From positions 1 to 28,620 of IMG/VR virus record IMGVR_UViG_3300050158_000039: DNA of 28,620 nucleotides; one strand, 5' to 3'. Within the stretch, counting starts at the first letter, position 1; each line of letters starts with the position of its first letter. Below the pieces are notes generated by a model. That model worked only from the letters and a program-made list of their open reading frames with translations. It ran no database searches and was not told where the DNA came from. The position numbers were made by a program, and so were the translations under genes. Of the stretch, positions 1 through 27,756 are shown in pieces. The DNA is from a virus.

Positions 1-72
1 CGAATACGTATCATCGTAGTCGTTGTATCCAAAACACAATTCACGACCCTTTATAATTGCTACCTTACGCAC
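1..72 (-). CDS. 5' part of a hypothetical protein (runs off the window)
   Basis: AAGGAG RBS, then GTG at 72; open frame MRKVAIIKGRELCFGYNDYDDTYS. Confidence 0.5.
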   Translation of the reverse strand, partial: MRKVAIIKGRELCFGYNDYDDTYS

Positions 73-92
73 GGCAGTCTCCTTATTGTTAT

Positions 93-157
93 TGGCTGAA
101 TTACCACCCAGCTGAAGCTAGCAAGCTAGCAAGCTGTTTGTACATTAGTGGTAATTC
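93..157 (-). ncRNA. putative small stem-loop RNA ending in CCA
   Basis: 10-bp stem GAATTACCAC/GTGGTAATTC, inner CAGCT/AGCTG stem, 3' AG-CCA; begins 3 nt after the tRNA-Thr CCA. Confidence 0.35.
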
Positions 158-160
158 GAT

Positions 161-235
161 TGGTGCTCCGTGACGGACTCGAACCGCCTTAAACCTGACT
201 ACAAAACAGGACATCACCATCAATGCTTACGGAGC
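161..235 (-). tRNA. tRNA-Thr(UGU)
   Basis: Acceptor GCTCCGT/ACGGAGC-ACCA, anticodon loop TT-TGT-AG, T-loop TTCGAGT. Confidence 0.85.
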
Positions 236-266
236 ATGAATAAATATATGACCAAAGGATTTGATC

Positions 267-701
267 ATGAAATTGCTAGAACTATTTGATACCGACGTTG
301 CTTGGAAAGAGGTTGTACACAACCCAAAGTTAATCGAGTATCTGGTGACCATTGGTTATGGTCACTTTACCATTACCTTCGAGCAAGTCTCCCAACGAGC
401 AGTAGAGAAGCACGGGCTTGATCCAAATACATGGTTAGTTGAATTCTCTCGTGCCACTGGCCCTGGCGGAAAAGATCCGTACGGAATTACCAACACGGGA
501 AATGCACCCCAAGTACTTGCAGTTGTGACAAAAGCCATGCAAGACTTTGCTGCAAAACACCGTGTGCAATACATGATGTTTAGCGCTCACGAAGAGTCTC
601 GTAAGTCACTATACCGACGCATGATTTCTCGGCTAGGAACATTGGTAAAGGTGTACAACGTCCCAGAAGGGGAGAAGTACATCATCAAAGTGGGAAACTG
701 A
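267..701 (+). CDS. hypothetical protein, probably late/virion-associated
   Basis: ATAAATA at 240-246, AAGGA RBS, N-terminus MKLLELFD resembling processed head proteins. Confidence 0.7.
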   Translation: MKLLELFDTDVAWKEVVHNPKLIEYLVTIGYGHFTITFEQVSQRAVEKHGLDPNTWLVEFSRATGPGGKDPYGITNTGNAPQVLAVVTKAMQDFAAKHRVQYMMFSAHEESRKSLYRRMISRLGTLVKVYNVPEGEKYIIKVGN

Positions 702-766
702 GATAAAGTCGCAACGAGGGTGGATTTCATTAACAGTGAAGTACCTCTGTTAGCTACGCAACAGTT
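696..766 (-). ncRNA. Y-RNA-like structured RNA, copy 1 (tRNA-Asn-type loop CUGUUAA)
   Basis: Terminal stem AACTG/CAGTT; motifs GCGTAGC, TACTTCA and GCGACTTTATCTCAG shared with copy 2; middle stem covaries. Confidence 0.7.
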
Positions 767-767
767 C

Positions 768-920
768 GGGGAAGCGTGGAGGACTCAAACCTCCGAGCGG
801 CCATGCGCGCTTAGCCTTTTCTACAACCATTACACGATCAACCATTCGTGCGGCAGGAATCGAACCTGCGTAGTACCATACCGAGTGGGACTCGAACCCA
901 ATACTCTCCTTTACGCTTCC
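768..920 (-). ncRNA. tRNA-like RNA with three T-arm hairpins
   Basis: 8-bp closing stem GGAAGCGT/ACGCTTCC; T-arms at 886-900, 853-869 and 778-794. Confidence 0.65.
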
Positions 921-923
921 AGT

Positions 924-998
924 TGGTTGCCAGTGGGAATTCCGAGATCCCGACCTTCGCCTTATCAAGACGCTGCTCTGCCTCTGAGCTAACCGGCA
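924..998 (-). tRNA. tRNA-Ile(GAU), atypical T-loop
   Basis: Loop TT-GAT-AA, D-arm GCTCAGAGGCAGAGC, T-loop CTCGGAA, 3' ACCA. Confidence 0.8.
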
Positions 999-1004
999 AT
1001 AAAT

Positions 1005-1078
1005 TGGTCCCTTCGTCGGGAATCGGACCCGCGTCTATCGGTTATCAGCCGATTGCTCTCCCACTGAGCTACGAAGGG
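1005..1078 (-). tRNA. tRNA-Ile(GAU)
   Basis: ATCGG-CTGATAA-CCGAT; acceptor CCCTTCG/CGAAGGG-ACCA; T-loop TCCGATT. Confidence 0.85.
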
Positions 1079-1082
1079 AAGT

Positions 1083-1156
1083 AAACTGAGATAAAGTCGC
1101 CGTGACGGATTTGGTTTCATTAAAAGTGAAGTAGCCGTCGTGCTACGCAGCAGTTT
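1083..1156 (-). ncRNA. Y-RNA-like structured RNA, copy 2 (tRNA-Lys-type loop CUUUUAA)
   Basis: Terminal stem AAACTG/CAGTTT; same conserved motifs as 696-766; middle stem GACGG/CCGTC. Confidence 0.7.
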
Positions 1157-1231
1157 AGTACCCACAGTAGGACTCGAACCTACAACCGGTCGCTAATCGG
1201 GCAACAGCTCTACCAATTGAGCTATGCGGGT
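1156..1231 (-). tRNA. tRNA-Ile(GAU)-like with non-canonical anticodon loop (possible pseudo-tRNA or decoy)
   Basis: Canonical D and T arms; loop CC-GAT-TA (C33, U37); 3' end ACTA rather than ACCA. Confidence 0.65.
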
Positions 1232-1237
1232 ATAATT

Positions 1238-1313
1238 TGGTGGACCTAGAGGGAATCGAACCCTACTTACAACGTACTTGCAAGGCACGTCAGTAACCCC
1301 ATTACTTAAGCCC
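1238..1313 (-). tRNA. tRNA-Ala(UGC)
   Basis: Loop CT-TGC-AA; G3:U70 Ala identity pair; 3' ACCA. Confidence 0.88.
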
Positions 1314-1323
1314 ATGAGATTTT

Positions 1324-1399
1324 TGGTAGACCGCCGGAGGATCGAACTCCGATAAAGCCTGGGTAAGAGCCAGGTGCATAACCATTCTGCCAACGGTCC
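1324..1399 (-). tRNA. tRNA-Lys(CUU)
   Basis: CCTGG-CTCTTAC-CCAGG; T-loop TTCGATC; 3' ACCA. Confidence 0.85.
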
Positions 1400-1407
1400 A
1401 TTTAATT

Positions 1408-1482
1408 TGGTAGGGCGCCCCAGATTCGAACTGGGTTCTCTCTGCTTAAGAGGCAGGACTTCACCATCAAAGTTTGCACCCC
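1408..1482 (-). tRNA. tRNA-Lys(CUU)
   Basis: CTGC-CTCTTAA-GCAG; T-loop TTCGAAT; 3' ACCA. Confidence 0.85.
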
Positions 1483-1490
1483 AAATTTTG

Positions 1491-1814
1491 CTAAATTTCT
1501 ATTAGCCCAGCGTGGTGTTTTCTGTGACAATTTGCACACAATACAACACACTTGGCAATCTCCGCTCGAACTCTATCATCGTTCATTGCTAACATAGAAG
1601 AAACGGTTTGGTCTTTTCCTCCTAAATGGTGGAAATCTAGGCACACCACATTCATTTCTGAACACTTAACACATCCGTTACGTTTAGCTTCAGCAATGAT
1701 CGAACGCGTTCGATCACGTCTCGCTTTTTGGTTAGCTTGGTACGTTTCTTTGTTGTTTGCGTAATGTTCTTGCGCTTTGGTTCGATGGTATTCTTTGGTC
1801 TGATATTCTTTCAT
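1491..1814 (-). CDS. HNH endonuclease (free-standing homing type)
   Basis: CVKC...LDFHH...KCVVLCANCHRKHH zinc-HNH signature; GGAGA RBS. Confidence 0.85.
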   Translation of the reverse strand: MKEYQTKEYHRTKAQEHYANNKETYQANQKARRDRTRSIIAEAKRNGCVKCSEMNVVCLDFHHLGGKDQTVSSMLAMNDDRVRAEIAKCVVLCANCHRKHHAGLIEI

Positions 1815-1818
1815 AATT

Positions 1819-1857
1819 TCTCCTGGTTCGAATATATTTAGTAATCGAACCAGGAGA
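1819..1857 (-). promoter_or_regulatory. RBS-occluding hairpin with a late-promoter-like TAAATA in its loop
   Basis: 13-bp inverted repeat TCTCCTGGTTCGA/TCGAACCAGGAGA covering the HNH RBS. Confidence 0.7.
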
Positions 1858-1867
1858 GGCTTTTTTG

Positions 1868-1943
1868 CTCCGCATCTGGGTAACGATCCCAGCTAATCAT
1901 TGATTAACAGTCAAGTCCGTGCACCAAGCTCGAATTCTGCGGA
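1868..1943 (-). tRNA. tRNA-Asn(GUU), divergent, no encoded CCA
   Basis: TTGA-CTGTTAA-TCAA; G discriminator; T-arm CTGGG-ATCGTTA-CCCAG. Confidence 0.75.
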
Positions 1944-1959
1944 ATAGAAATGTATTTTG

Positions 1960-2034
1960 CTCCGCGACCAGGAGTTGAACCCGGCTAATCTGCATTAACA
2001 GTGCAGCGGTTGTCACCACGACGCCTCTCGCGGA
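1960..2034 (-). tRNA. tRNA-Asn(GUU), no encoded CCA
   Basis: CTGCA-CTGTTAA-TGCAG; acceptor TCCGCGA/TCGCGGA-G. Confidence 0.82.
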
Positions 2035-2051
2035 GCAAAATACACATTCTT

Positions 2052-2137
2052 TGGTCCTCCGGGTGGGACTCGAACCCACTGTGTCATTACGACGGCTGAT
2101 TAAAAGTCAGCTACCCGACCAGTTAGGTGTCCGGAAG
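2052..2137 (-). tRNA. tRNA-Lys(UUU) with a long variable arm
   Basis: GCTGA-CTTTTAA-TCAGC; variable region CGTCGTAATGACACA; 3' ACCA; 86 nt. Confidence 0.82.
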
Positions 2138-2151
2138 AAAAGAAACACATC

Positions 2152-2167
2152 AAATTGTAAAAGAGCA
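2152..2167 (-). promoter_or_regulatory. rrn-type boxA antitermination element
   Basis: TGCTCTTTTACAATTT versus E. coli rrn TGCTCTTTAACAATTT; upstream TCGCC/GGCGA hairpin could act as boxB. Confidence 0.7.
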
Positions 2168-2263
2168 AGCGTTTTACCACAACTCTCGCCGGTGCTCACA
2201 TTTTGGCGACGCGGAATCGGAGAATGTTTGTGATAACTTAGCTAACAAAAAAGCCCTTGAGCT

Positions 2264-2295
2264 TCTTTTGAAAAGGGTTAACCCTTTTCAAAAGA
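2264..2295. repeat. perfect 32-bp palindrome overlapping the HNH stop codon and a terminator-like hairpin
   Basis: TCTTTTGAAAAGGGTT|AACCCTTTTCAAAAGA. Confidence 0.9.
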
Positions 2296-2752
2296 TCACT
2301 TGAATACCAGCGTGATGCTCACGGTGGCAATTACTGCACAACACCACACACTTTTTAATCTCTTGTTCTATCATTTCTATAGTTATATGTTGGTCTAATA
2401 CGGCTTGTGAAATGCTGAATGATTTGGTGTTACCATCAATGTGATGCAAGTCCATCGCCTGTTTGCACTTATCATATCCACAAGCAGCGCATCGTACTTT
2501 TACACCATCAATAATTTCACGTTTAGGTTGGACCAAACGTTCGTGCCTGCGTCTATGACTTCGCACAGCCCCAGGCAACTTCATCGCGTGCTTGTTATAG
2601 CAACCGCTGCACCTAGAATGATATGCCACATATCCCGACTTTGTGGTTCCGTGTGTGGGGAACTCACTGGGCGGTTTATCCGTGTTGCAGTCTCGACAGT
2701 GCAACGTGGGCCTGTGTTGTTTTGGTATCCATCCTTCTTTCGTTTTAGGCAT
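2288..2752 (-). CDS. HNH endonuclease with N-terminal zinc finger
   Basis: CRDC...CSGC; CAAC...DLHH...KCVVLCSNCHREHH; TATAAATA at 2774-2781; GGAG RBS. Confidence 0.85.
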   Translation of the reverse strand: MPKTKEGWIPKQHRPTLHCRDCNTDKPPSEFPTHGTTKSGYVAYHSRCSGCYNKHAMKLPGAVRSHRRRHERLVQPKREIIDGVKVRCAACGYDKCKQAMDLHHIDGNTKSFSISQAVLDQHITIEMIEQEIKKCVVLCSNCHREHHAGIQVIF

Positions 2753-2830
2753 CTTAATTTACTCCGGTTTGAGTATTTATAAGAGCCCTGGTTTTCGTTT
2801 TACTTTTTCTGGGCTTTTGTTGAGCCCAAC

Positions 2831-2860
2831 AAAAAACCCACCGTGACTTCTCAGGGTGGG
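2831..2860 (-). terminator. attenuator terminator
   Basis: CCCACC-CTGA-GAAG-TCAC-GGTGGG followed by TTTTTT; the 5' arm overlaps AGAGCCC, which is complementary to GGGCTCT at 2899-2905. Confidence 0.85.
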
Positions 2861-2888
2861 CTCTTGTGTTAACTTGCGTTATGCTTCG

Positions 2889-2972
2889 TTAAGCGCGGAG
2901 AGCCCCCTGCGATGTTTTAATCGCATTATTTGTCACTGCCTTGGCGGTAATAACGGTGTTGAAGTTCATCAT
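2889..2972 (-). CDS. attenuator leader peptide MMNFNTVITAKAVTNNAIKTSQGALRA
   Basis: 27 codons plus TAA, translated by hand; weak GAAAG SD; stop codon lies inside the antiterminator region. Confidence 0.75.
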   Translation of the reverse strand: MMNFNTVITAKAVTNNAIKTSQGALRA

Positions 2973-3050
2973 TTGCTTTCGAAGTCATTGCCTCTCAGTG
3001 AGGCGTACAAGTATTTATGTCAGTTGCCTGAAAAGTTTTCAATTGCGTTT

Positions 3051-3079
3051 ATTATAACTGAGGGTCAAGTAAACGTCAA
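3051..3079 (-). promoter_or_regulatory. sigma70 promoter of the tRNA operon
   Basis: TTGACG-17 nt-TATAAT; an additional ATAAATA at 3012-3018. Confidence 0.85.
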
Positions 3080-3172
3080 CAGGTGAATTTTACTTGCCGT
3101 CAAACACAAACGCGTTCGTCTAGTTGTTACTATCTGCTATTGATAAATAGAAGTCAACAGGAGATTTTGGGT

Positions 3173-4714
3173 ATGTTGTTCATTCATCTTACAGAAATGG
3201 CTGCAGCTAAGCTGTGTCCCACTTGCGGCAAGACCATGGCTGCAAATCACTACTGGTATAAGGGCGCTTGGAAATGTAAAGGTGCAAGTAAACAACAAGC
3301 ACAAAACCCAACCATCGCAGCCGCTAAGGCGGAGCCCGAAGACGCCACCGAACAACCAACCGATGCGTCGAACTTTACGCAACCAGAAGATCAAAGTCAA
3401 CAGATTACCCCCGTACCCGCAGAACCAGACACAGCAACCGGACCAATTCACGTCTTTGCGTTATCGTTTGTTGTTGACGTTATCGAAGACGCAATGCCAG
3501 TGCTTGAGAAGGAGCTCACGAAGATCAACAAGATTGCTGCACGAGTTGGCGCTGACCCTGTGGAGCTCAAACAACTGGGCGTCGTCTTCAAGGACGCTGA
3601 ATCTCCGGGGAAGACGACAAAGTTCAAACAAAAGTTCATTACTGTTGAGCTTATCGGAGCAGCGCCACGTATTCAATCGGCTGACGGTAAGTTTTGGGAG
3701 TTCATTGGTGTAATCTCTCCGTCAGCCTCAGGCAAAGCTGTGCTCAATCTAGTCCCCGGCACTGAAGACACCGACGGTGTCCGCAAGCTCGCTTCGTCCA
3801 ATCCTTATTACTGCGATTACTGCCGGAAGGTTCGTCAGCGCAATGAGACCTTCATTGTTACTGACGGTACTGCATATCGACAGGTTGGTCGTAATTGTCT
3901 GAAGGACTTCATTGGTAGTGCTGACCCTGCTGCTCTGCTTAGTTTCTTCGGGTTCTTTCAAAATGCGGCTGACTTCAAGAGCCACATGTTGAATATGGCG
4001 ATGCGTGGCGCAAACAAGGGTGCTGGTTATGAAAAGATGTACCTGAAGCCGCGTGACATTTTAGCAACAACTATGGCCGCCATTGATGTTGTTGGCCATT
4101 ATGTGCCGGCCAAAACAGAGACTGGCGTTAGTACTGCTCAGCGAGTTCGGGAAGCGATGTGGGGGTCGGTATACCACGACGGCATTGCTGAAAAGATTTC
4201 CGACAAGATGGACGATCAGCAGTACAAGACAGAAGCTGATGACATCATCAACTGGTTCAATAGCCTACCACAAGCGGAAATTGACGCCAATACATATTAC
4301 CAAAACGTCAAGACTATGATTGACGACGATGCTGTTGAGACAAGATTCTTAGCGTACGTTGTTGGTCTGTATGCCGCGTGGAAGCGCGCTCAGCCCAAGC
4401 CAGCCGCTACTGCAACACCCCAGTTAACAAAGGATTGGCCACAAGCGTGGGGCAACGGACCTCAACCTGTAACCAAGGAGCATGCTGTTGTCAAGTTTGT
4501 GAAAGACGTTAATGGTCAGTACGGCACTTCGCAGCTGATTTTGCTGATGCTCGACAATGGTCAGGGAGTGTCGTGGTTCTACAGCGGGCGCAATACTGTG
4601 GAAAAGGACGATGAGTTTGAGCTGACCGGTGAGTTCCACAAAGACTCGTACCACAATCCACCAACGGTCAAGTTTGTGCCAGATCGCAAATGGCTACGAA
4701 GCGCGTTCCAATAA
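3173..4714 (+). CDS. phage protein with zinc-binding motifs, function unknown
   Basis: CAGGAG RBS, ATAAATA at 3143-3149; CPTC, CDYC...QVGRNCLKDFIG; possible C-terminal OB-like domain. Confidence 0.75.
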   Translation: MLFIHLTEMAAAKLCPTCGKTMAANHYWYKGAWKCKGASKQQAQNPTIAAAKAEPEDATEQPTDASNFTQPEDQSQQITPVPAEPDTATGPIHVFALSFVVDVIEDAMPVLEKELTKINKIAARVGADPVELKQLGVVFKDAESPGKTTKFKQKFITVELIGAAPRIQSADGKFWEFIGVISPSASGKAVLNLVPGTEDTDGVRKLASSNPYYCDYCRKVRQRNETFIVTDGTAYRQVGRNCLKDFIGSADPAALLSFFGFFQNAADFKSHMLNMAMRGANKGAGYEKMYLKPRDILATTMAAIDVVGHYVPAKTETGVSTAQRVREAMWGSVYHDGIAEKISDKMDDQQYKTEADDIINWFNSLPQAEIDANTYYQNVKTMIDDDAVETRFLAYVVGLYAAWKRAQPKPAATATPQLTKDWPQAWGNGPQPVTKEHAVVKFVKDVNGQYGTSQLILLMLDNGQGVSWFYSGRNTVEKDDEFELTGEFHKDSYHNPPTVKFVPDRKWLRSAFQ

Positions 4715-4740
4715 AAAAAGCCCCTTCTGGGGCTTTTTTT
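4713..4740. terminator. bidirectional intrinsic terminator
   Basis: A-tract, AGCCCC-TTCT-GGGGCT, T-tract between convergent genes. Confidence 0.9.
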
Positions 4741-4769
4741 ATAGTGGCTGAAGATATGTTATCTACGCA

Positions 4770-5840
4770 CTAACTAGCGTAGATTTGATTCTTCACGGCT
4801 TGAACGCGGTGGTTGATGATCGTCTGACGAATCTGTGATTTATCAGCCACAGACGCAGCCACAGCAGCGGCATCTACTGACTTTGCTCGAGTCAGCACAC
4901 CGTCCAAGCTCGTAGCAACCTTGGGGCCAAACACGAATCGCAAGTATTCGACAGTTTGGTGAACCAATGTGGGGTCGGAGAAAGCACGCATCTGATCCAA
5001 CACCGTCACCTGTTCTTCAGCACACGACCGGTCGAACAGGCGCAATTGAACGCTGTGCTTGCTCGCAGCCAACGGAACACGTTGCATGTCAGACGGGATT
5101 TTACAATCCGCCATTTCTTGCTTGGACATGCCGGCTGCGACCAATGCTACTCGCACATACATCGGCGTACCTGATTCGACAACGGCCAAAAGCGGAAGAA
5201 CTTGGCTGTGTGCGAACGGACGCATGCAATCAACGTCCAATGCACCACATTGTTCGAGTACCCTGAACATTCGATACGGGAGTGCTTCCGTCAGTCCCTT
5301 TTCAATCTCAGCCCAAATCCGTTCACGAGGAACGTACGCCAGCTCAGGTGCAACCTGTCGCATCAACTCCAGTGTGTCATTCGCGACGGTGAAACCATAT
5401 CGAGCAGCGAACCGAGCAGTGCGCAGCACTCGAACAGGGTCTTCTGCAAACGCCACGCTTGTGTGGCGCAGCACACGCTGCGCAATGTCGTGCTGGCCGC
5501 CGTGCGGATCGATCAGTTTGTACGTATCGTCAGTGATGTCAACAGCCATCGCATTGATCGTCAAGTCACGCCGGTACAGGTCATCTTCCAGTGTGATCGT
5601 AGGATCAAACCGAGTCTCAAACCCGTTGTATCCAACACCCGTCTTGCGTTCTTGCCGAGCCAACGCATATTCATCACCGGTTTCGGGATGCAGGAACACA
5701 GGGAATCCTGCACCAACTTGCTGAAAGCCTTGGGCCAGCATGTCTTCTGCAGTGGCACCGACAACCACATAGTCACGGTCCTTCGGCACGATGCCCATCA
5801 CCATGTCGCGTACAGCACCGCCCGTGAGATAAATCTTCAT
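4770..5840 (-). CDS. cca: class II tRNA nucleotidyltransferase (CCA-adding enzyme), apparently without an HD domain
   Basis: [34 protein letters not shown]; start at MKIYLTGG. Confidence 0.93.
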
Positions 5841-5895
5841 AGTAGCTCCTTCTAATGCTCCTCCGACTATAAATAAGATCAGGAGGATTGACAAC

Positions 5896-6681
5896 ATGGG
5901 GCGGAAGCGCATCACACAACAAGAATATATCAATCGCGCAAACAGTATACACCAATCTAAGTATGATTACAGCATGACTAATTACACAACCATGGCTGAC
6001 AAAATTACCGTCAGTTGCCCAACACATGGATTGTTTGAGGTGTTAGCTTCCAATCATGTTAAACAATTAAAAACACCGTCAACCCAACACTTAGCTGCAA
6101 ACGGATGTCCCAAGTGTGGGGTTCTCAGTGTCATACAACGCAATAAGCAGGGGCGGCGCCCCTTTGCTGATTTTGTTAGAGAGGCTGAAGAGACTCACAA
6201 CGGCCAATACCAATATAGTGAGGAGGGTTACCGTGGTGTGGATAACAAAGTAAACATTACGTGTCCACACCACGGGGTCTTTCAGCAGCAGGGGAGTAAT
6301 CACTTGCGAGGTACCGGATGTCCTAAATGCAAGAACTCAAGGGGTGAGACTCAAATTGCTCGCAGCCTGACTACACACGGAATCCCGTACATGCAACAAC
6401 ATAGCTTTGAGGGATGTATTGGCGATGCTGGTAAACCATTAAAGTATGATTTTTGGTTACCATCTATTAACACAGCAATTGAATACGATGGCGAGCAGCA
6501 TTTTCATCCTGTTCGGTTTCATCAAGGTATGACAAATGAGCAGGCCGTCCAAATGTTTGAACGCACTGTTCGCTATGACAAATACAAAGATGCCTTTGCA
6601 GAGACTGTTGGCATCAAACTAATTCGTATTCCATACTTTAACCGTTGCTGGATTGGGGACATTATTGCGGGATTGGTGTGA
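5896..6681 (+). CDS. putative homing endonuclease (zinc-ribbon repeats plus PD-(D/E)xK/Vsr-like domain)
   Basis: Repeated CPxHG..F and GCPKC; YDFWLP...IEYDGEQHF; TATAAATA at 5868-5875. Confidence 0.8.
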
Positions 6682-11556: not shown

Positions 11557-11972
11557 TCGTCTCGTAGTTCCATCAGGATCTTGCCGAGCATGTTCTTTCC
11601 GTTGCTGGAACCAGCCGGACAAACGCCCCAGAACTTGTCGTTCCACCAATTGCCTTCTTCGAGATGTTGACCAGCGGTTGCGATCAGTCGCTGTTTGAGG
11701 TCTGGGTTTTGTTCAAACTTTGCGCGAACAATCTCCTTCATCAAGTCAACCTTGACTGATTCCCAATCTGGACGCAGCAAAACGTGCTTACCAGCACGTT
11801 TTGCAACGCCTGGTGACTTCATCCGTGAGAACGTTAGCCGCACATCCCGATCGAGGGACTTGGCGGCTTGATACGCATGTTCGCTGGTCGGCCAGACGAT
11901 ATTATCCCACACCATTTCCGCATGTGCGAAATTGGACAGGAATGCATTTTCTCCGTCGAACGTCTTAATCAT
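11547..11972 (-). CDS. NADAR (YbiA-like) family protein
   Basis: FLSNF, TSEHAYQAAK, KFEQNPDL, EGNWWNDKFWG, GKNMLGKILMELR. Confidence 0.92.
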   Translation of the reverse strand: MIKTFDGENAFLSNFAHAEMVWDNIVWPTSEHAYQAAKSLDRDVRLTFSRMKSPGVAKRAGKHVLLRPDWESVKVDLMKEIVRAKFEQNPDLKQRLIATAGQHLEEGNWWNDKFWGVCPAGSSNGKNMLGKILMELRDEWL

Positions 11973-12805
11973 TTCTTGATCCACCCAAGTTTTTGTGACA
12001 GCACATCGAAGAAGTTCCAAGAAGCGAGGTGCAGAATCTTGGCTGTGGTGATGTGGGGTCGAATTTGAATTTCATACGGCTTCTCTTCCGTATACACCTG
12101 ACGGCCTCGCGACACCGTCTGCCCATCATGGCGCACTGCAATCGTACCACCCCACACCGACAGACGAATCGTGTCACGTGCATCTGTGATGATCGGGCGA
12201 GACGTCATGGTCAGGGGGGCAACCGGCACGATCTGGATAACCGACAAGTTCGGCATGATCAGGGCACCGCCAGCAGACAACGAATACGCAGTACTGCCCG
12301 TAGCTGTTGAAATCAGGATGCTGTTTGCTTTGTGCACTCCGGCAAACGCATGGCCGACCAGCAGCTTGTAAGAAATCATCGAGTCGCTTTGAGCGCGTGA
12401 GACCGAGACTTCATTGCCTGCAAACATGTCAGAGGCGCTAGACCACAACACAATGCGGCGGTCAATCATTGTTGGTTCTGTGTCATTGATTACGCTAGCG
12501 ATTTGTTTCTTGATCTGAGCCAGGTGATCTTGGTCATTGCCGTGCTCAAAGTCAGTCAGGAAACCAACCTTCCCCATGTTGATACCAATTGCTGTTGCAT
12601 CGAACTGCGCTGCGAGTCGAAGTGCTTGCAACATAGTTCCGTCACCGCCAATCGCCACAATCAGCGTATCGGGCAAGACTTGATCGAGATCGACCATCCG
12701 CGCCCCCTCCTTGACAGCAACTTGACACACCGCCTCAACGACCCGACGAACCTTCGGATCTTGCTCACTGTTCAGTTTTGCAACAATGTGTACGGTACGA
12801 AACAT
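11969..12805 (-). CDS. nadK: NAD kinase
   Basis: GGDGT, GIN.GKVGFL, NE motif, TATGSTAYSLSAGG. Confidence 0.93.
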   Translation of the reverse strand: MFRTVHIVAKLNSEQDPKVRRVVEAVCQVAVKEGARMVDLDQVLPDTLIVAIGGDGTMLQALRLAAQFDATAIGINMGKVGFLTDFEHGNDQDHLAQIKKQIASVINDTEPTMIDRRIVLWSSASDMFAGNEVSVSRAQSDSMISYKLLVGHAFAGVHKANSILISTATGSTAYSLSAGGALIMPNLSVIQIVPVAPLTMTSRPIITDARDTIRLSVWGGTIAVRHDGQTVSRGRQVYTEEKPYEIQIRPHITTAKILHLASWNFFDVLSQKLGWIKK

Positions 12806-12925
12806 TATTCTGGCCTTGTGTATGGAGATAACGCGACTATATCCAATCGAATTAGCTTTGACAACAGCCAAGCTTTCACATCACCGTACGATAAATATCG
12901 CGTACTGACGTGAAAGTAACATCCC

Positions 12926-19713: not shown

Positions 19714-21150
19714 TTACGCCCTTTCGCTGTTGGCACGAACCTCTTCGAACGTGTATTCCTTGAGGATCTTGCCGTTACGGAACACCTCAACAAGCACGTT
19801 TTCAGTCGGAGTCTTGATGAAATCATCCTCCGGCAGCGTGTAGTACTTGCCATCCGACAACGTGCGGACGAGCTTCAGGCGTCCTCGCTTGGAGCGCTTG
19901 CCGCTGTCAGTGATCGGATCCTTGTACACGTCGTACCAGCGAGTCGTCTTGTTGCCCCAAGACGCATCATCGTCTTGTTCGTGGAAGCCGTTAATGGCAA
20001 TCGCAGAGCACTTCATCGCGAACTTTTGCGTGTCGCGGTTGATACCTTGCAGCAGAGCACCGCCCATACCGAACGCCACGTTGTCGGCACTGTAACCAGC
20101 ATCGATCAGAGCCTTCAGGATTTCACGGATCGATTCCTCGTTGATGCCGTCGCCTTGGATCACACGGACGTGGTTCAGCACCTTGTAGCCCTTAGCATTC
20201 ACCACCGAACCGAACTGCTTGTCGAGAATCTGGACGACCTTCAGCACCACGGTTGCGGGATGACCCGAGTCAGGACGCACGACCAGCATGCCACCACCTG
20301 CGATCACTTCTGCCTTCAGCTCCTTGCCCCAGATGTTTTCGCACGCGTTGTAGATGTCGTATGAGTCAGACACCACTGCGTAGATTGATCCAGGCTTGCT
20401 GAACTGCTTGATCATGTTGCGGTACGCTTCCGCTTCACCCTTACGGCCGAACGGAGTGATCGTGCTGTGCTCAGCAGCAGGAATCGAGAAGCCGACCATT
20501 GCCTTGGTGTTGTAGTACTTGCGCGCGAACAGGATGCCAGTGATCGTGTCCGAGCCCATGAAGTTGACCAAGTGAGCCGCACCGCCAAGACCAGCGGATT
20601 CATACGAGCTGACGCCGCGAGCACCGAAGTCGTGCAGCTTGAACGGCAGACCAGCAACATCGCCAGTCAGTTCGAGCGCTTCCTTGATCACTTGCTTGAT
20701 CGACCAGCTTTGGGTGGCAACAGTGGTCATATACCACACAGCACGCAGGATCATCGTTTCGCAGTACGAAACCAGCCAAGCGCACTTGTCGTCAGTGGAT
20801 TCCACCGTGACGAGGACGTTGTGGGTCGGGATGATGAGGCCTTCGGGAACAGCCTTGATCGACAGTGGCAGATAGCCGTCATACTTTTCCAGGATGTATT
20901 CCCAACCTTCGCGGTTGAAAGGCTCACCGTGTGCTGCGAGAAACTCAGCAGCTTCTTCGATATCTTCGCGAGTGATCGGCTTACACAGCGTTTCCTTCAA
21001 CAGTGGCTGAAGACCGACAAACTCTGTCTTGTCATACACACCACCACGACTCTCGATGTACGAGAACTGGTTCACAGTGCCAGGAGGGGTTTGTAGGAAG
21101 TGACTCGGCTTGTACGAGTCAGTGTTGAGAATCAGATTGATTAGAGACAT
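19714..21150 (-). CDS. nadV: nicotinamide phosphoribosyltransferase (NAMPT)
   Basis: TDSYKPSH, LHDFGARG, SIPAAEHS, VSDSYD, VRPDSG, IQGDG, FGMGGALLQ; AAGGAG RBS. Confidence 0.95.
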   Translation of the reverse strand: MSLINLILNTDSYKPSHFLQTPPGTVNQFSYIESRGGVYDKTEFVGLQPLLKETLCKPITREDIEEAAEFLAAHGEPFNREGWEYILEKYDGYLPLSIKAVPEGLIIPTHNVLVTVESTDDKCAWLVSYCETMILRAVWYMTTVATQSWSIKQVIKEALELTGDVAGLPFKLHDFGARGVSSYESAGLGGAAHLVNFMGSDTITGILFARKYYNTKAMVGFSIPAAEHSTITPFGRKGEAEAYRNMIKQFSKPGSIYAVVSDSYDIYNACENIWGKELKAEVIAGGGMLVVRPDSGHPATVVLKVVQILDKQFGSVVNAKGYKVLNHVRVIQGDGINEESIREILKALIDAGYSADNVAFGMGGALLQGINRDTQKFAMKCSAIAINGFHEQDDDASWGNKTTRWYDVYKDPITDSGKRSKRGRLKLVRTLSDGKYYTLPEDDFIKTPTENVLVEVFRNGKILKEYTFEEVRANSERA

Positions 21151-21251
21151 GGCAAAACTCCTTTGCATGATGGTGATGCATCACCAGTCTATCCGGTGAG
21201 CGATTTTTGTCGGTGTTTGAGGTTCCGACCTCCTATCTCTTCATGCTGAAG

Positions 21252-21681: not shown

Positions 21682-22158
21682 GTACTTACGAGTCGGTGGA
21701 ATCCACCGATACCAATCTTTGACCTCTTGAACGATCGGTTCAAAATTGTCGTGAACTGTGACAGTAGGATACTCCATCTCTAACTGCTTTTCAACGTCAA
21801 ACTTACGGGGGTAAGCTGGGTGGCAGCCAACAAACATTGTTCGCCGAGCAACTGACGCCTGTCCAAGTTCAAACAGCGTGATTGGACACAGTGTGTTGTA
21901 CGGGAACCAAAAGATCATGGCGTCGCACATACGAATGTGACGATACTCCCAATCAATCTGAAACTCAGACTGCGTGGGATCAGAAATGTCAAACGATGAG
22001 CGGCGTGGGTTGACCAGAACGAAGTCGTCAGGCATGTATTTGAACCGGTCAATCATTTCCTTTTGCCAATCTGGGCACCCCGAAATGCCGCCGCCGAGGA
22101 AGACGCGCACAGAGCCATCATTCTTCGTCAATTCAGTAGGACACTCAATTACTTTCAT
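21679..22158 (-). CDS. nucleoside 2-deoxyribosyltransferase-like protein
   Basis: VFLGGGI.GCPDWQ, NPRR, QIDWEY, FWFP..TLCPITLFELG. Confidence 0.85.
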   Translation of the reverse strand: MKVIECPTELTKNDGSVRVFLGGGISGCPDWQKEMIDRFKYMPDDFVLVNPRRSSFDISDPTQSEFQIDWEYRHIRMCDAMIFWFPYNTLCPITLFELGQASVARRTMFVGCHPAYPRKFDVEKQLEMEYPTVTVHDNFEPIVQEVKDWYRWIPPTRKY

Positions 22159-22768
22159 CATCGTTCTCCGCTTGTTTCAACACGGGGTATAACTGTTCAG
22201 CTAACGTTCCCATTTTGGAGTGATCACCAGGATCTCTTCCAGCCGTACGCATGATTTCACTGCATTTGTGCCAGTTGATCAATCCTGCTATTGTGTGTCC
22301 AGCTTCGCTCATACCAATCTCGAGATACATCCGGCACTCTAGGTAGTTGCGCCATGAGAATCCTTCATATGTGTCACACTTGACGGCGTTACGTACGAAT
22401 TCAGGGGGGAGGTATTCATCTTCAATCGCAACGTAGTGCGACACTTCTGGGTGGTTATCCAACCACCACCGGATTTCATGACACCGGTAACTGGACAACT
22501 TACGGGGTGTGATCCAATCTTCGTGCAGAAACGTCTCATCAATTCCGTTTGCTGCTAGGACTTGGACAACAGCATCGCGGCCTTTTACGCCCCACGTACT
22601 AGAAATCACCAACTTGGCATTAGCGTCTTCCAATAGTCGCAACAACAGGGAAACAGCGCATGGATCAAATACCGTCACCAGCGGCTTAGTTTGGTTAAGC
22701 ATGTAGTATGCTCGAACCGGAATCATTGGACCATCAATGTCCAAGAAAATAATTTTGGGGTTAGTCAT
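22145..22768 (-). CDS. HAD-family phosphatase (Swiss-army-knife RNA-repair type)
   Basis: IIFLDIDG, LVISSTW, EIRWWL...YVAIED. Confidence 0.8.
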   Translation of the reverse strand: MTNPKIIFLDIDGPMIPVRAYYMLNQTKPLVTVFDPCAVSLLLRLLEDANAKLVISSTWGVKGRDAVVQVLAANGIDETFLHEDWITPRKLSSYRCHEIRWWLDNHPEVSHYVAIEDEYLPPEFVRNAVKCDTYEGFSWRNYLECRMYLEIGMSEAGHTIAGLINWHKCSEIMRTAGRDPGDHSKMGTLAEQLYPVLKQAENDDESN

Positions 22769-22796
22769 TATGACTATTATACGAGGCGGCGCTGGA

Positions 22797-23027
22797 TTAT
22801 TCAACAGACCACGTAAACCGCTCATATGTGCCCGATTGCGCATTGACAAATCGACTGAAATAAGACAATGCGACTGACTCACTCGGAAACAGCCTCATCA
22901 GCGATTCCGCACCGATTGCGCCAGAACCCGTCCAAGCAAACCGATGAGATACTGGAACGAACGGCCCACCATATCCCATGGTAGCGCCTTCAGCGTCAAT
23001 TACTGTGATGTACTTGACTGGTTTCAT
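22797..23027 (-). CDS. hypothetical protein
   Basis: ORF filling the gap, in the same orientation as its neighbours. Confidence 0.45.
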   Translation of the reverse strand: MKPVKYITVIDAEGATMGYGGPFVPVSHRFAWTGSGAIGAESLMRLFPSESVALSYFSRFVNAQSGTYERFTWSVE

Positions 23028-23088: not shown

Positions 23089-23586
23089 ATGAAAAACTGC
23101 CTTAATTGCGCTACAGAACTGACATCACCCCACGCCCGAAAGTTTTGCTCTCGATCATGTTCGTGCACATTTAATCGTAACCGGTTGAGCACCGGACGAT
23201 ACGCCCCCAAATCCTGCTCCTGGTGTGGTGCGCTTACAACAAATCCGAAGTTTTGTTCTAAACAGTGCATGGGTTTAGCCAAGGTCAAATATCATACTGA
23301 CGAATCACGTTTAACCGCACAACGCGCGCTTGGACGAGAGGCGGTCGCTAGATACCACGCTAAAAAGAAGTACCAAACACCAGTGGATGCAGATTTAACA
23401 GCCATTAAGTTGTTTTACGCAAATTGTCCTGATGGATTCGAGATCGATCACATCATTCCAATATCAAAAGGTGGATTACACACGCTTAGCAATTTGCAGT
23501 ATCTTACCAAAGCGGACAATCGATCAAAGTCGGCAAAACTTGATTGGTGCCACCAGAGGGATTTGAACCCTCAAACATCACCTTAG
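23089..23586 (+). CDS. HNH endonuclease with zinc-finger repeats
   Basis: FCSRSC and FCSKQC; EIDHIIPISKGGLHTLSNLQYL...NRSK; ATAAATA at 23077-23083. Confidence 0.88.
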   Translation: MKNCLNCATELTSPHARKFCSRSCSCTFNRNRLSTGRYAPKSCSWCGALTTNPKFCSKQCMGLAKVKYHTDESRLTAQRALGREAVARYHAKKKYQTPVDADLTAIKLFYANCPDGFEIDHIIPISKGGLHTLSNLQYLTKADNRSKSAKLDWCHQRDLNPQTSP

Positions 23587-23619
23587 GAGGGTGAGACCTA
23601 TCCAGTAGGAGTTGGTGGC
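23545..23619 (-). tRNA. tRNA-Arg(CCU), nested inside the split tRNA
   Basis: TCACC-CTCCTAA-GGTGA; acceptor GCCACCA/TGGTGGC-ACCA. Confidence 0.85.
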
Positions 23620-23651
23620 GTGTCCCGTTCTGTCCATTGAACTACAGGGAC
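23620..23651 (-). pseudogene. 5' half of the split tRNA (Arg-like body)
   Basis: GTCCCTG-TA-GTTCAATGGACAGAAC-G-GGACA-C. Confidence 0.8.
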
Positions 23652-23703
23652 ATTATGACTGACACGACATTTCGGCTTTACTTGCCTGGTGTGGGACGTC
23701 AGT

Positions 23704-23793
23704 TGGAGGAAGATAATGGAATCGAACCATCCCCGATTCATCACCGAGGGCCGAGCTTTCGAGACTCGTTATGCACCATGCATGCTATCTTCC
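23704..23793 (-). tRNA. tRNA-Ser(CGA)
   Basis: CGAGT-CTCGAAA-GCTCG; long variable arm; CCA. Confidence 0.85.
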
Positions 23794-23828
23794 GTTTAGT
23801 GGGGTATTTACTACCCCACTCTTGTTCC

Positions 23829-24383
23829 TTAGAACTTGTACGACACAGCAGTCGTCAGGCCGTTACCGACGAGAGACGAACCAGTGACGTTTGTGCGAGC
23901 AACGCCAGCGCGAATCGACACAGCCTTCGACACAGCGAAGTCAGCACCGACGGTGAAGCGGTTGGCAACAGCAGTATTGTCTTCACGGAAGTGCTCAACA
24001 CCAGCGAAAGCCGTGACGGTCTGGGTGACCGGCAGAGTGCCTTCAGCAGCAACACGGAACGCGTCAGTCTTCGTCTCAATCAGATGAGCAAAGGCAACAC
24101 GACCGTTCAGGCCGACGGCGCCCAGCTTGACACCGTTGCTGTAGCCGATTTCGTAGCCAGCTTGGGTCTGACGACCAGGGGTGTACGAACGGTCGCCAAG
24201 AACGGCGACGTCAACAGCGCCTGCAGCGCCATAAGCGGCCTTGACACCAACAGCACCGAGATGGTTGCTGAGGGCGACACTTTCAGCCTTGTCGTAGTCA
24301 TACTTGACAAAACCAGTCAGGTCAGCAGCGGAGGCTGCAACAGCAGCGAGTGCCAGAACAGCACCAAAAACAGTCTTCTTCAT
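23829..24383 (-). CDS. small outer-membrane beta-barrel protein
   Basis: Signal peptide ending ASA/A, alternating beta-strand pattern, C-terminal VSYKF. Confidence 0.8.
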   Translation of the reverse strand: MKKTVFGAVLALAAVAASAADLTGFVKYDYDKAESVALSNHLGAVGVKAAYGAAGAVDVAVLGDRSYTPGRQTQAGYEIGYSNGVKLGAVGLNGRVAFAHLIETKTDAFRVAAEGTLPVTQTVTAFAGVEHFREDNTAVANRFTVGADFAVSKAVSIRAGVARTNVTGSSLVGNGLTTAVSYKF

Positions 24384-24471
24384 ATCGATTCCTTTTCAAA
24401 AATTTCAGTATGCGAACATACCGAAGTAAGCAGTGTAATGTAGGGTGACGGGAATGTCAACGATTACACTA

Positions 24472-24789
24472 TTACAGATGAGATTCCACCATGGAATTCA
24501 GCTTTGGTTGGGTGATGTTGCCCACGTTTGTCTGAACAGGCTGACCATCTTTGAATAGGATCAGGGTTGGGATGCCACGAACACCATACTTGGCACCGAT
24601 CGCCGAATCGTCAACGTTCACCTTGACGACCTTGATCTGGTCAGCATATTGTTCTGCAACTTTTTCTAGAGTAGGAGCTAGAGCCTTACACGGAGCACAC
24701 CAGGGCGCCCAAAAGTCAACCAGCACTGGCTGCTTGCTTTGAAGTACTTCTGTTTCAAAAGCGTCAGCGGTTGCTACATCAATCATCAA
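24472..24789 (-). CDS. trxA: thioredoxin
   Basis: VDFWAPWCAPCK, GIPTLILFKDG. Confidence 0.93.
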   Translation of the reverse strand: MMIDVATADAFETEVLQSKQPVLVDFWAPWCAPCKALAPTLEKVAEQYADQIKVVKVNVDDSAIGAKYGVRGIPTLILFKDGQPVQTNVGNITQPKLNSMVESHL

Positions 24790-24800
24790 TTATCCTTATG

Positions 24801-25100
24801 TTAGTCGTAATTTTCACCCTCTGATAGGGCTGTCTTGATTTCACGTATAGTATCGTACGACCAAACGTATGAAGAGTCAAGCTCATACACGACAATACAG
24901 GGAACGTATTCCAACTCGTCGTGGAAGTCTTCCCCGTAATCTCGCAATAGCACTTCAATATCGTGAGCGGTTAGTCCTTCTGCGGCGACAGATTGGAATT
25001 CTGATGCTGCAGCTTTTAGTGTGGAGAATACGCCGCACAGATGACCTTCGTGATCTTGGACAACGTATACGTATTTCGGTTTACTTTGACGCTGCGGCAT
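24801..25100 (-). CDS. hypothetical protein
   Basis: ORF in an operon-like arrangement. Confidence 0.6.
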   Translation of the reverse strand: MPQRQSKPKYVYVVQDHEGHLCGVFSTLKAAASEFQSVAAEGLTAHDIEVLLRDYGEDFHDELEYVPCIVVYELDSSYVWSYDTIREIKTALSEGENYD

Positions 25101-25102
25101 AA

Positions 25103-25342
25103 TCACATGAACTTGATTCTTGCATCTGCTGGAATGCGGTCTTTGCGATTTTGTTTGAATGAGACGGCAGCGTCATCGTCTTTGAACGGACCAGCGAGCT
25201 TCTTCCCAGTAGCTCGGTCAATGATCCAATGACCTTTTGTGCGAGTCATTCTGTCGAGTCCAGCACCCCGTTCTCGGGCTTGTGCTTGGTGAGCCAAATA
25301 TAGATCACCTGCATCTATTTCCATAACATCTTGCCACTTCAT
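25103..25342 (-). CDS. hypothetical late protein
   Basis: GGAG RBS, ATAAATA at 25366-25372. Confidence 0.65.
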   Translation of the reverse strand: MKWQDVMEIDAGDLYLAHQAQARERGAGLDRMTRTKGHWIIDRATGKKLAGPFKDDDAAVSFKQNRKDRIPADARIKFM

Positions 25343-25398
25343 AGCATCTCCAGTGAGTGATGCTATATTTATGGAATTCTGGGAATCTCAACCTTAAT

Positions 25399-25594
25399 TG
25401 GCGCCGACAGTAGGACTTGAACCTACGACCTTCCGGTTAATTACCGGTTGCTCTACATTATTTGTTCGTGACGTAGAACCTCAGGGGAGCGACCCCATCC
25501 ACAATACGTCCGTGTACAATAACGGCACTACATTCTGTATGTGTTTACGTACGCCACATACAGCTCGTCGTTGCTCCCACTGAGCTACATCGGC
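25399..25594 (-). ncRNA. 196-nt tRNA-like RNA with a ~120-nt structured insertion at the D-arm and a non-canonical anticodon loop
   Basis: Acceptor GCCGATG/TGTCGGC-GCCA, intact T-arm, arm CCGG-TAATTAA-CCGG. Confidence 0.72.
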
Positions 25595-25596
25595 TT

Positions 25597-25671
25597 TGGA
25601 CCCGCGTACAGGAGTCGAACCTGTATCACAACCTTCGGAGGGTCGTATTCTGTCCGTTGAAATAACGCGAG
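25597..25671 (-). tRNA. tRNA-Arg(CCG)
   Basis: CGACC-CTCCGAA-GGTTG; CCA. Confidence 0.87.
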
Positions 25672-25675
25672 AACA

Positions 25676-25769
25676 TGGAGGATGGCAACGGAGTCGAACC
25701 GTCACCGGCTCTTCACCAGCGGCACGAGTTTTCAAGGCTCGTTGGGCATCCAGCAGCCCGCTACCATCC
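25676..25769 (-). tRNA. tRNA-Ser(UGA)
   Basis: Loop CT-TGA-AA; long variable arm; CCA. Confidence 0.85.
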
Positions 25770-25780
25770 ATAACTATTAT

Positions 25781-25869
25781 TGGTGGGAGATGCGAGACTC
25801 GAACTCGCACGCTACTTTATTCGCTTCGGTACCTAAAACCGACGTGGCTACCAATTACACCAATCTCCC
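25781..25869 (-). tRNA. tRNA-Leu(UAG)
   Basis: TCGGT-TTTAGGT-ACCGA; long variable arm; ACCA. Confidence 0.88.
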
Positions 25870-25942
25870 TCTGCTCAGAGTTTCCTGCGAGTGACATGTT
25901 GGGCATATGAACTGCAGATTCTCTTTGCGATTATTCCAGTAT

Positions 25943-26146
25943 TTACCGTCTACCAACCTTCTTCACAGACATTCCAGGCTTATCCCACCCGTATCCCATC
26001 AAGCAATGGCCGGTGTTTGTCGACAATTGCTTTTCTTGGTGGACACTACCGCAGACTTTGCACGCGGGAACAGGATCGCTTAGCTTGACGAGGTAATCCT
26101 CAGCAGGAGCATCACAGTCGGAACATTTGTATGTATAGATTGGCAT
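25943..26146 (-). CDS. FmdB-family zinc-ribbon protein
   Basis: MPIYTYKCSDC...CKVCG...L.G.GW. Confidence 0.8.
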   Translation of the reverse strand: MPIYTYKCSDCDAPAEDYLVKLSDPVPACKVCGSVHQEKQLSTNTGHCLMGYGWDKPGMSVKKVGRR

Positions 26147-26154
26147 GGTTATTT

Positions 26155-26349
26155 TTATTTTGCTGGTTGTGGAGTTGTCCAAAGGACGTCCCCTTCGTGG
26201 AAGACCCATTCATAGTCTCCACTGGTGGTTACTTCAACTTCCCACTTCCCGTCAACCAGCTTTGGATTGCTGTAGACCCGGTAAAAGTCATTGGGATCGT
26301 CATCGTATACGACTTGTCCAGCCTTCAACTCATGAATTTGAATCTTCAT
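26155..26349 (-). CDS. hypothetical protein
   Basis: Start at MKIQIHELK; the upstream part of the track ORF overlaps tRNAs. Confidence 0.6.
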   Translation of the reverse strand: MKIQIHELKAGQVVYDDDPNDFYRVYSNPKLVDGKWEVEVTTSGDYEWVFHEGDVLWTTPQPAK

Positions 26350-26370
26350 ACTTTGAACTGTTGTGTTATT

Positions 26371-26460
26371 TGGAGGAAGGCGTGGGATTCGAACCCACGG
26401 GCCCAATAAAGGGCCGTCTGATTTCAAGTCAGGTGCCTTAAACCGCTCGGCCAGCCTTCC
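26371..26460 (-). tRNA. tRNA-Ser(UGA)
   Basis: CTGA-CTTGAAA-TCAG; variable arm GGCCC/GGGCC; CCA. Confidence 0.9.
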
Positions 26461-26466
26461 ATTTTG

Positions 26467-26567
26467 TGGGTAGTGAGGGTTTCGAACCCCCGACCCTCTC
26501 CTTGTTCCTTTGCCGCACAATCTTGGCTGGCCGGAAGGGAGACGCTCTACCACTGAGCTAACCACCC
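26467..26567 (-). tRNA. tRNA-Val(UAC) interrupted by a 29-nt anticodon insertion
   Basis: Canonical Val body; TCTCC-CTT[29 nt]ACAA-GGAGA; no encoded CCA. Confidence 0.75.
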
Positions 26568-27333: not shown

Positions 27334-27756
27334 TTAATAATGAGTTCGGCCAATTGTCAGATGATGATACTTCCAACTCGCAAACAACCCCAACTCTTCG
27401 CGGATTTCATCAACTTCGGGACAGTTAACACGGATCCAATGAAAGTATCCGGGTTGATCCTTATCCTTTGAGATTTGGATGTCACCGTGTTCATATTGAA
27501 AAGTTACGCGCTGGCCGTGACGCTTCTTCCACATTTTAGCCATACGCTGAGCTTGACGTTCACCACGAACGACGGAGATGTGCGCATCCCACGACGGTTG
27601 TTGCAGAATGATGTGTTTTTCTTTGCGCAGCCACCAGCGATAATACCGGGTGATTTCTTTGTCCACGTCAATAACACACCACCAAGCAGTGTTAGCCTTC
27701 ATATCGCCGCGATGGGGGTCGTATTGGATACGACCCGTACCTTCAAGCCATTCCAT
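27334..27756 (-). CDS. 2H-phosphoesterase-like protein
   Basis: Two Hx(S/T) motifs, AHISV and HHLTI. Confidence 0.65.
   Translation of the reverse strand: MEWLEGTGRIQYDPHRGDMKANTAWWCVIDVDKEITRYYRWWLRKEKHIILQQPSWDAHISVVRGERQAQRMAKMWKKRHGQRVTFQYEHGDIQISKDKDQPGYFHWIRVNCPEVDEIREELGLFASWKYHHLTIGRTHY

Follow-up and report, generated by a model that had tools for sequence, protein, structure and literature searches.

The first 28,620 nucleotides (nt) of the IMG/VR virus record IMGVR_UViG_3300050158_000039, referred to here as the window, carry on their minus strand a short leader open reading frame (ORF) followed by an array of transfer RNA (tRNA) genes, and the analysis described below argues that this leader is very probably part of a ribosome-coupled transcription attenuator that senses slow decoding and thereby gates the array. 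The contig that begins with the window (G000) is a phage sequence of 183 kb that lacks terminal repeats, and on it a second leader precedes the main tRNA array; leader and array are called A in the window and B further along the contig. A giant phage probably makes each of its two main tRNA blocks only when ribosomes are slow to read the codons that match that block.

Leader composition follows array content

A preliminary description of this locus had placed leader A at 2972-2889 and had assigned 12 of the 13 codons at positions 8 to 20 to Lys, Asn, Ala, Ile or Thr; coordinates and count were both verified. It had also stated that the array encodes tRNAs for these five amino acids only, which holds for the visible array and includes all the intact Lys, Asn, Ile, Thr and Ala tRNAs of the contig. 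The word "only" probably reflects truncation, because array A extends to within 160 nt of the contig end and the arrays of longer relatives continue with Ala, Val(GAC), Val(UAC), Thr(GGU) and Thr(CGU). Indeed, Val tRNAs could be predicted from two Val codons in the leader, and they are present in the longer loci. With Val added from the relatives, 16 of the 17 codons in the sensing zone of leader A match the array (P 6e-6), compared to 14 of 17 without Val (P 4e-5), and among 1,440 short ATG ORFs genome-wide just one scores 16/17 for the set of six amino acids.

Leader B is matched in the same manner to a different set. Its sensing codons agree with array B in 31 of 32 cases (P 1e-6) and cover all 14 amino acids of that array, and none of them specifies Lys, Asn, Ile, Thr or Ala. 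A third group of tRNAs in the window (Ser, Leu and Arg; 23545-26567) has no detected leader.

Further evidence comes from the cultured Ralstonia phage RsoM2USA (MG752970.1), which has two leaders, at 87361 and 112124, that look unlike leaders A and B of the present contig in sequence. Its leader A matches in 28 of 28 codons (P 8e-6) an array for Met, Ile, Asn, Gln, Lys, Arg, Phe, Ala, Val, Pro, Asp and Thr, and its leader B matches in 21 of 22 codons (P 3e-8), covering nine of nine amino acids, an array for Pro, Cys, Glu, Tyr, Leu, Trp, Ser, His and Val. Five amino acids (Phe, Arg, Gln, Asp and Met) are served by array B in the window phage and by array A in RsoM2USA, with a corresponding shift in the leaders. 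When leaders are swapped within a genome, the matches fall to 1/17, 1/32, 1/28 and 4/22. The proposal that leader composition tracks the downstream array in related phages thus stood in four leader-array pairs, a test that rests on two distant lineages rather than on a tree-wide count. The paper describing RsoM2USA mentions neither an attenuator nor a leader (PMC8504454).

The correspondence is one of amino acids, and a match at the level of anticodons is not supported in any single leader. The earlier statement that every anticodon in the array has a cognate leader codon is literally correct (6/6), and this number does not exceed what synonymous shuffling provides (null 4.7, P 0.18); likewise, no single leader exceeds synonymous shuffling in isoacceptor match. 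Pooled A leaders, from lineages that are related to each other, reach 75 versus 68.4 (P 0.016), and the pooled B leaders are not significant. The further idea that the sensed set reflects ANN codons and N6-threonylcarbamoyladenosine (t6A) tRNAs is contradicted by Ser(GCU) and Met(CAU) in array B, by Ala and Val in array A, and by the different split in RsoM2USA.

Conservation among relatives

Relatives were traced through homologues of a 543-residue protein encoded beside the leader, yielding eight phage lineages. The leader, both helices of the switch and a Lys/Asn/Ile/Thr/Ala array occur at the equivalent position in seven of the eight, whose neighbouring proteins are 39-53% identical; in relative L045/L046 the neighbouring gene is present, and both array and leader are missing. 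A motif search added four further A leaders, for a total of 11 uncultured relatives with an A leader. Three more phages have a conserved leader B; they were reached from the motif-found genomes and through a second neighbouring protein. One of the genomes in these two added groups is complete, with a length of 350 kb. Against cultured phages, BLAST with the region and tblastn with the leader gave matches to tRNA bodies only, or none, and neither the exact leader pattern nor searches for single-protein loci gave a match in viral contigs.

The start and frame of leader A are kept in the relatives, in which the two alternative frames are interrupted by stops, and 29 of 36 pairwise amino-acid changes between leaders (pairs that are not independent) remain within the set of the array. 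A 20-codon ORF in another frame, starting at 2988, was rejected as the leader, with no counterpart start seen in the relatives. Two 151-nt contigs from metatranscriptome X23 cover 2719-2994; they were not counted as evidence because they may come from DNA carry-over and carry neither level nor strand.

The antiterminator, the terminator and the modelled switch

The two exclusive structures given in the preliminary description were confirmed: 2905-2899 is complementary to 2864-2858, and this pairing competes with a terminator at 2864-2831 that ends in six U residues. The leader RNA folds more stably than its shuffles (z -5.2). Nine stacked pairs of the terminator are held in 8/8 sequences, and two of these pairs show three or four pair types; the core pairs of the antiterminator are held in seven or eight of the eight, with one compensatory change from C-G to U-A. 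In the two most distant leaders, one base of segment 3 covaries with its partners in both helices. The earlier reading of this geometry as an attenuator like those of thr, ilv and his is strongly supported by the leader-array match, the failure of the swaps and these conserved, covarying helices. An Rfam search of the window returned tRNA matches only, and no T-box or other leader model was matched.

The switch point was modelled by walking a ribosome along the leader, using equilibrium folding, a 13-nt footprint from the A site and a nascent RNA that ends before segment 4. In this model, a ribosome on the control codons leaves segment 2 free, and the antiterminator has a probability of 0.75-1.0 as long as the A site lies inside the matched zone, until the boundary codon; a ribosome past the control codons covers segment 2, and at the stop codon the probability is at most 0.37 in 17 of 18 leaders, the exception being RsoM2USA leader A with 0.57. 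The boundary predicted from folding alone is codon 19 in the window leader, which coincides with the end of the matched codons, as the boundary does in the other leaders. No protector (1:2) helix like that of trp is predicted, and the modelled antiterminator probability is 0.56-1.0 when no ribosome is present; an untranslated leader is therefore predicted to read through, unlike trp.

Promoters, pausing and the proposed course of regulation

The sigma70 promoter claimed at 3079-3051 was borne out; it is the top sigma70 match within positions 1-6000, and most relatives have comparable -35/-10 spacing at this location. A second motif, ATAAATA, resembles the T4 late promoter and is presumably a late promoter of the phage. 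Of its 49 occurrences, 43 have a gene start no more than 160 nt away, tail genes included, as a raw count without chance expectation, and the motif is found upstream of tail genes (12891, 16274) and of the gene preceding the capsid gene. Because this motif precedes both leaders in every relative, early and late transcription alike would cross the switch.

A pause-like element within leader A is present in 5/7 of the relatives found through the neighbouring gene, against a background of 3% per 12-nt window; the bases used as consensus for the site at 2897 are those commonly given for polymerase pausing. Most A leaders have such a consensus-like site, and the B and RsoM2USA leaders have no match at the equivalent position. 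The concept of such a polymerase pause has been described (10.1101/422220). Beyond the terminator, a boxA-like site is kept in 6/7 relatives and in RsoM2USA. The only other boxA match on the minus strand of the genome lies at 56995, upstream of a GOLLD RNA (Rfam, 219 bits; L002 2597-3031, minus strand; G000 about 56530-56096). Between terminator and boxA is a structured segment of about 65 nt (2232-2168, minus strand), loosely conserved in the relatives, that may be a boxB-like or processing element.

These parts suggest the following course of events. RNA polymerase would start from the sigma70 promoter or the late motif and would probably remain paused at 2897 for as long as the leader carries no ribosome. 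With plentiful charged Lys, Asn, Ile, Thr, Ala and Val tRNAs, the ribosome would move past codon 19 and cover segment 2, so that the terminator forms and transcription ends near 2831. With slow decoding, segment 2 would pair with segment 3 before segment 4 emerges, and polymerase would read through, acquire Nus factors at boxA and transcribe tRNAs for the very amino acids that were sensed. The new tRNAs would then relieve the stall and close the loop, and leader B would act likewise for the other 14 amino acids.

Several observations weigh against this scheme. Folding of the full-length RNA favours the terminator over its alternative by 2-9 kcal/mol, and the switch must therefore be kinetic. 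The Shine-Dalgarno sequence of the leader is weak, and translation of the leader, regulated read-through in vivo and the trigger are inferred. Near the leader start a Phe codon is conserved in a clade that lacks a Phe tRNA in array A, and the tRNAs Thr(CGU) and Pro(CGG) are mostly without a leader codon. No leader turned up in XacN1, Xoo-sp13, RAS14 or Serratia BF in a simple scan for an ORF plus terminator, an absence that is unproven because the same scan missed RsoM2USA leader B; taken at face value, these four phages indicate that large tRNA sets can manage without a leader. Finally, a late motif at 2780, downstream of the terminator, may serve as a late bypass of the switch in this phage. 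The circuit had been called self-limiting, a description that the motif at 2780 weakens for this particular phage.

Alternative explanations and the purpose of the switch

The most radical alternative is that the ORF is no sensor at all: the terminator would be constitutive or controlled by some factor, and the codon bias would follow from base composition or RNA structure. The weak Shine-Dalgarno sequence is compatible with such a view, as is a conserved hairpin that constrains part of the leader. We nevertheless regard it as very improbable, since it does not account for two leaders on the same strand with complementary composition, for five amino acids that move together between arrays and leaders, for a match that ends sharply at the occlusion boundary, or for a leader frame that is kept while the others break. 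A milder alternative accepts a genuine attenuator that is now partly vestigial in this phage, an inserted HNH endonuclease gene having brought a late promoter past the terminator. The motif at 2780 fits this idea, and just a weak leftover terminator is found behind the HNH gene. All parts of the switch are intact, however, the 3' arm of the terminator has diverged from that of the relatives and still pairs, and early transcription from the sigma70 promoter still has to cross the switch; we consider decay of this kind unlikely.

If the attenuator does sense slow decoding, what it is for is a separate matter. Sensing of tRNA depletion, as first proposed, survives as an attenuator of slow decoding; anticodon nucleases as its specific trigger are not established. 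The two leaders sample all 20 amino acids and match at the amino-acid level only, which fits any shortage of charged tRNA. A general homeostat of supply and demand, topping up tRNA when phage synthesis outruns the host pool or when host tRNA decays in a long infection, has in our judgement close to an even chance of being right. It agrees with the sampling of all amino acids, with late motifs upstream of both leaders that would allow switching during virion protein synthesis, and with the 270-min latent period of RsoM2USA and its G+C content of 41% versus 67% for its host (PMC8504454). It leaves odd anticodon loops and RNA-repair genes unexplained, and a constitutive promoter would be simpler.

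The other purpose, which does not exclude the first, is an inducible answer to host defences that cleave tRNA, such as PARIS AriB, PrrC and retron PtuAB; we consider this possible, though less likely than not. Extra tRNA remedies the loss of tRNA rather than amino-acid starvation, and a phage tRNA-Lys rescues T5 from PARIS (PMC11464382). The genome furthermore encodes a T4-type RNA ligase beside array B, RNA-repair HAD and 2H domains, a CCA-adding enzyme and a transfer-messenger RNA (tmRNA), and for each anticodon the array has several tRNA bodies that have diverged from one another, among them a long-armed Lys(UUU). The range of the two leaders, which span all 20 amino acids instead of the known nuclease targets, speaks against this purpose, as does the missing isoacceptor-level match in every single leader. 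In its full form, which we put forward tentatively, the two leaders would split the genetic code between them, read the tRNA pool and switch on matching nuclease-resistant tRNAs when a tRNA-cleaving defence fires or translation stops. The result would be an inducible counter-defence whose sensor requires no knowledge of the defence protein.

Array A, inserted genes and other features of the genome

Table 1. Elements of the two leader-array units, in window coordinates except where G000 is named
Feature	Position	Strand	Remark
sigma70-type host promoter	3051-3079	-	11/12 consensus match
Late-type phage promoter motif CATAAATA, upstream of leader A	3012-3019	-	invariant in 8/8 aligned leaders
Leader A ORF, 27 codons	2889-2972	-	start, frame and composition kept in 11 relatives
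Leader sensing zone, codons 3-19	2966-2916	-	within leader ORF
Pause-like element	2896-2925	-	hairpin 2925-2908, 11-nt spacer, G at -10, C at -1 (2897), G at +1; putative pausing
Antiterminator segment 2	2898-2907	-	pairs with 2865-2858
Intrinsic terminator, segments 3 and 4	2831-2864	-	six U; about -18 kcal/mol
Second late-type motif, past terminator, before inserted HNH gene	2774-2781	-	insertion missing in relatives
HNH endonuclease gene between terminator and tRNAs	2288-2752	-	PHROG 2255, E 7e-32
rrn-type boxA directly upstream of first tRNA	2151-2167	-	first 8 bases match rrn consensus UGCUCUUUA (PMC6614797)
tRNA-Lys(UUU), long variable arm	2052-2137	-	arm also in L037/L038
Two tRNA-Asn(GUU)	1867-2034	-	
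Second HNH endonuclease gene, within array	1491-1814	-	PHROG 3106, E 1e-21
Two tRNA-Lys(CUU)	1324-1482	-	
tRNA-Ala(UGC)	1238-1313	-	
Three tRNA-Ile(GAU)	927-1231	-	1231-1158, 1078-1005, 998-927
Degenerate Lys-like RNA	1153-1080	-	among the Ile tRNAs
tRNA-like shell	918-770	-	ends paired, three T-arm-like hairpins inside
Degenerate Asn-like RNA	766-690	-	
tRNA-Thr(UGU)	161-235	-	final tRNA before contig end
Leader B, 43 codons	starts G000 45530		upstream of array B; own antiterminator and terminator
Array B (main array)	G000 45153-35607		His, Ser, Pro, Phe, Arg, Gln, Asp, Tyr, Glu, Cys, Met, Trp, Leu, Gly

The two HNH genes, which the preliminary description did not include, are insertions in this phage, since the terminator directly adjoins the tRNAs in relatives. 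Behind the first of them lies a copy of the relatives' terminator 3' arm, which forms a weak hairpin with six U (-7.4 kcal/mol). Lys tRNAs usually have a short variable arm, which makes the tRNA-Lys(UUU) of the array unusual. The Ile-like tRNA at 1231-1158 (minus strand) has C33 and U37 in its loop, and this unit is variable in the population because contigs from two other runs skip exactly these 82 nt. The two degenerate RNAs at 1153-1080 and 766-690 (minus strand) are related to each other and have anticodon arms (UUU, GUU) and no recognisable T loop; they have homologues in L037/L038, L045/L046 and L055 and are possible decoys or non-canonical tRNAs. A pattern search with the degenerate tRNAs gave ten short matches of 17-19 nt, and the shell at 918-770 has no full-length homologue among the fetched loci. 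A DUF6934 gene lies inside the array on the opposite strand (261-701, plus strand) and is also present in L037/L038.

The contig has 52 ARAGORN tRNA calls and one tmRNA, which is permuted and of the betaproteobacterial type (L003 1016-1343); this type hints at the host. The capsid protein shares 62% identity with its counterpart in Xanthomonas phage XacN1 and 51.5% with the one in RsoM2USA, and leaf-litter metagenomes contain near-identical DNA. A set of tRNA-repair and NAD-restoring genes (window 4770-5933, 11969-12871, 19714-21168, 22145-22882 and 27334-27756; L061 2176-3312) comprises a CCA-adding enzyme, NAD kinase, nicotinamide phosphoribosyltransferase, an RNA-repair HAD protein, weak 2H domains and a T4-type RNA ligase. 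Among the other tRNAs, one at 26567-26467 (minus strand) has a 29-nt insertion in its anticodon loop, a possible intron; one register of removal gives Val(UAC) and others give Gly or Arg, and the equivalent cluster in relatives holds an intact Val(UAC). Two tRNA-like genes on the minus strand, at 25594-25399 (Ile/Asn-like) and 23651-23545 (Arg(CCU)), have large insertions in or before the D arm, and an amber-suppressor-type tRNA(CUA) is located at G000 54239.

Implications and comparison with known systems

It has long been asked why large phages carry tRNAs by the dozen. With a demand sensor placed before the arrays, the tRNAs would serve as a conditional rescue and not as a fixed correction of codon bias, and the question becomes testable, in that the condition that raises read-through would be the condition for which the tRNAs evolved. 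The leaders could also act as compact reporters for tRNA-targeting defences.

The switch itself is a textbook leader-peptide attenuator. As in the thrL, ilvGMEDA and ilvBN leaders of enterobacteria (and also trpL, hisL and pheL), an ORF with control codons ends in an antiterminator, an intrinsic terminator follows about 25 nt past the stop codon, and most A leaders have a pause-like hairpin. The phage version differs in that it regulates phage-encoded tRNAs instead of biosynthesis, transport or synthetase genes, in that 6 or 14 amino acids are each sampled once to a few times, whereas the enterobacterial leaders contain runs of one to three amino acids, and in that a boxA follows the attenuator. 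The predicted lack of a protector helix also means that an untranslated leader should read through rather than be super-attenuated. The pheM attenuator of the pheST synthetase operon is similar in principle, since translation of its leader controls machinery that supplies the sensed aminoacyl-tRNA; it controls a synthetase for a single amino acid and not tRNA genes.

The preliminary description knew of no such circuit in a phage, and we likewise found no publication on attenuation control of phage or bacterial tRNA genes in a search that left most subscription journals outside its coverage; neither the use of an attenuator on phage tRNA genes nor the split of the code between two leaders was found in the literature. 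The nearest published case found is the trn operon (L-array) of Anabaena, a long tRNA array with an HNH gene that is silent until translational stress (PMC8421152, PMC10272220). That array is controlled by a protein repressor, TrcR, at the promoter and has no amino-acid-matched sensor, and the string "attenuat" is absent from PMC8421152. In T5 facing PARIS, a phage tRNA likewise replaces a depleted host tRNA, while the available part of that report describes no demand-sensing control of the T5 tRNA genes (PMC11464382). The boxA-like site before a long untranslated RNA resembles rrn antitermination (PMC6614797), except that here it comes after an attenuator and before phage tRNAs. New in this work are a cultured phage that carries both switches, a structural boundary that coincides with the compositional one, and the prediction that a leader is on when untranslated.

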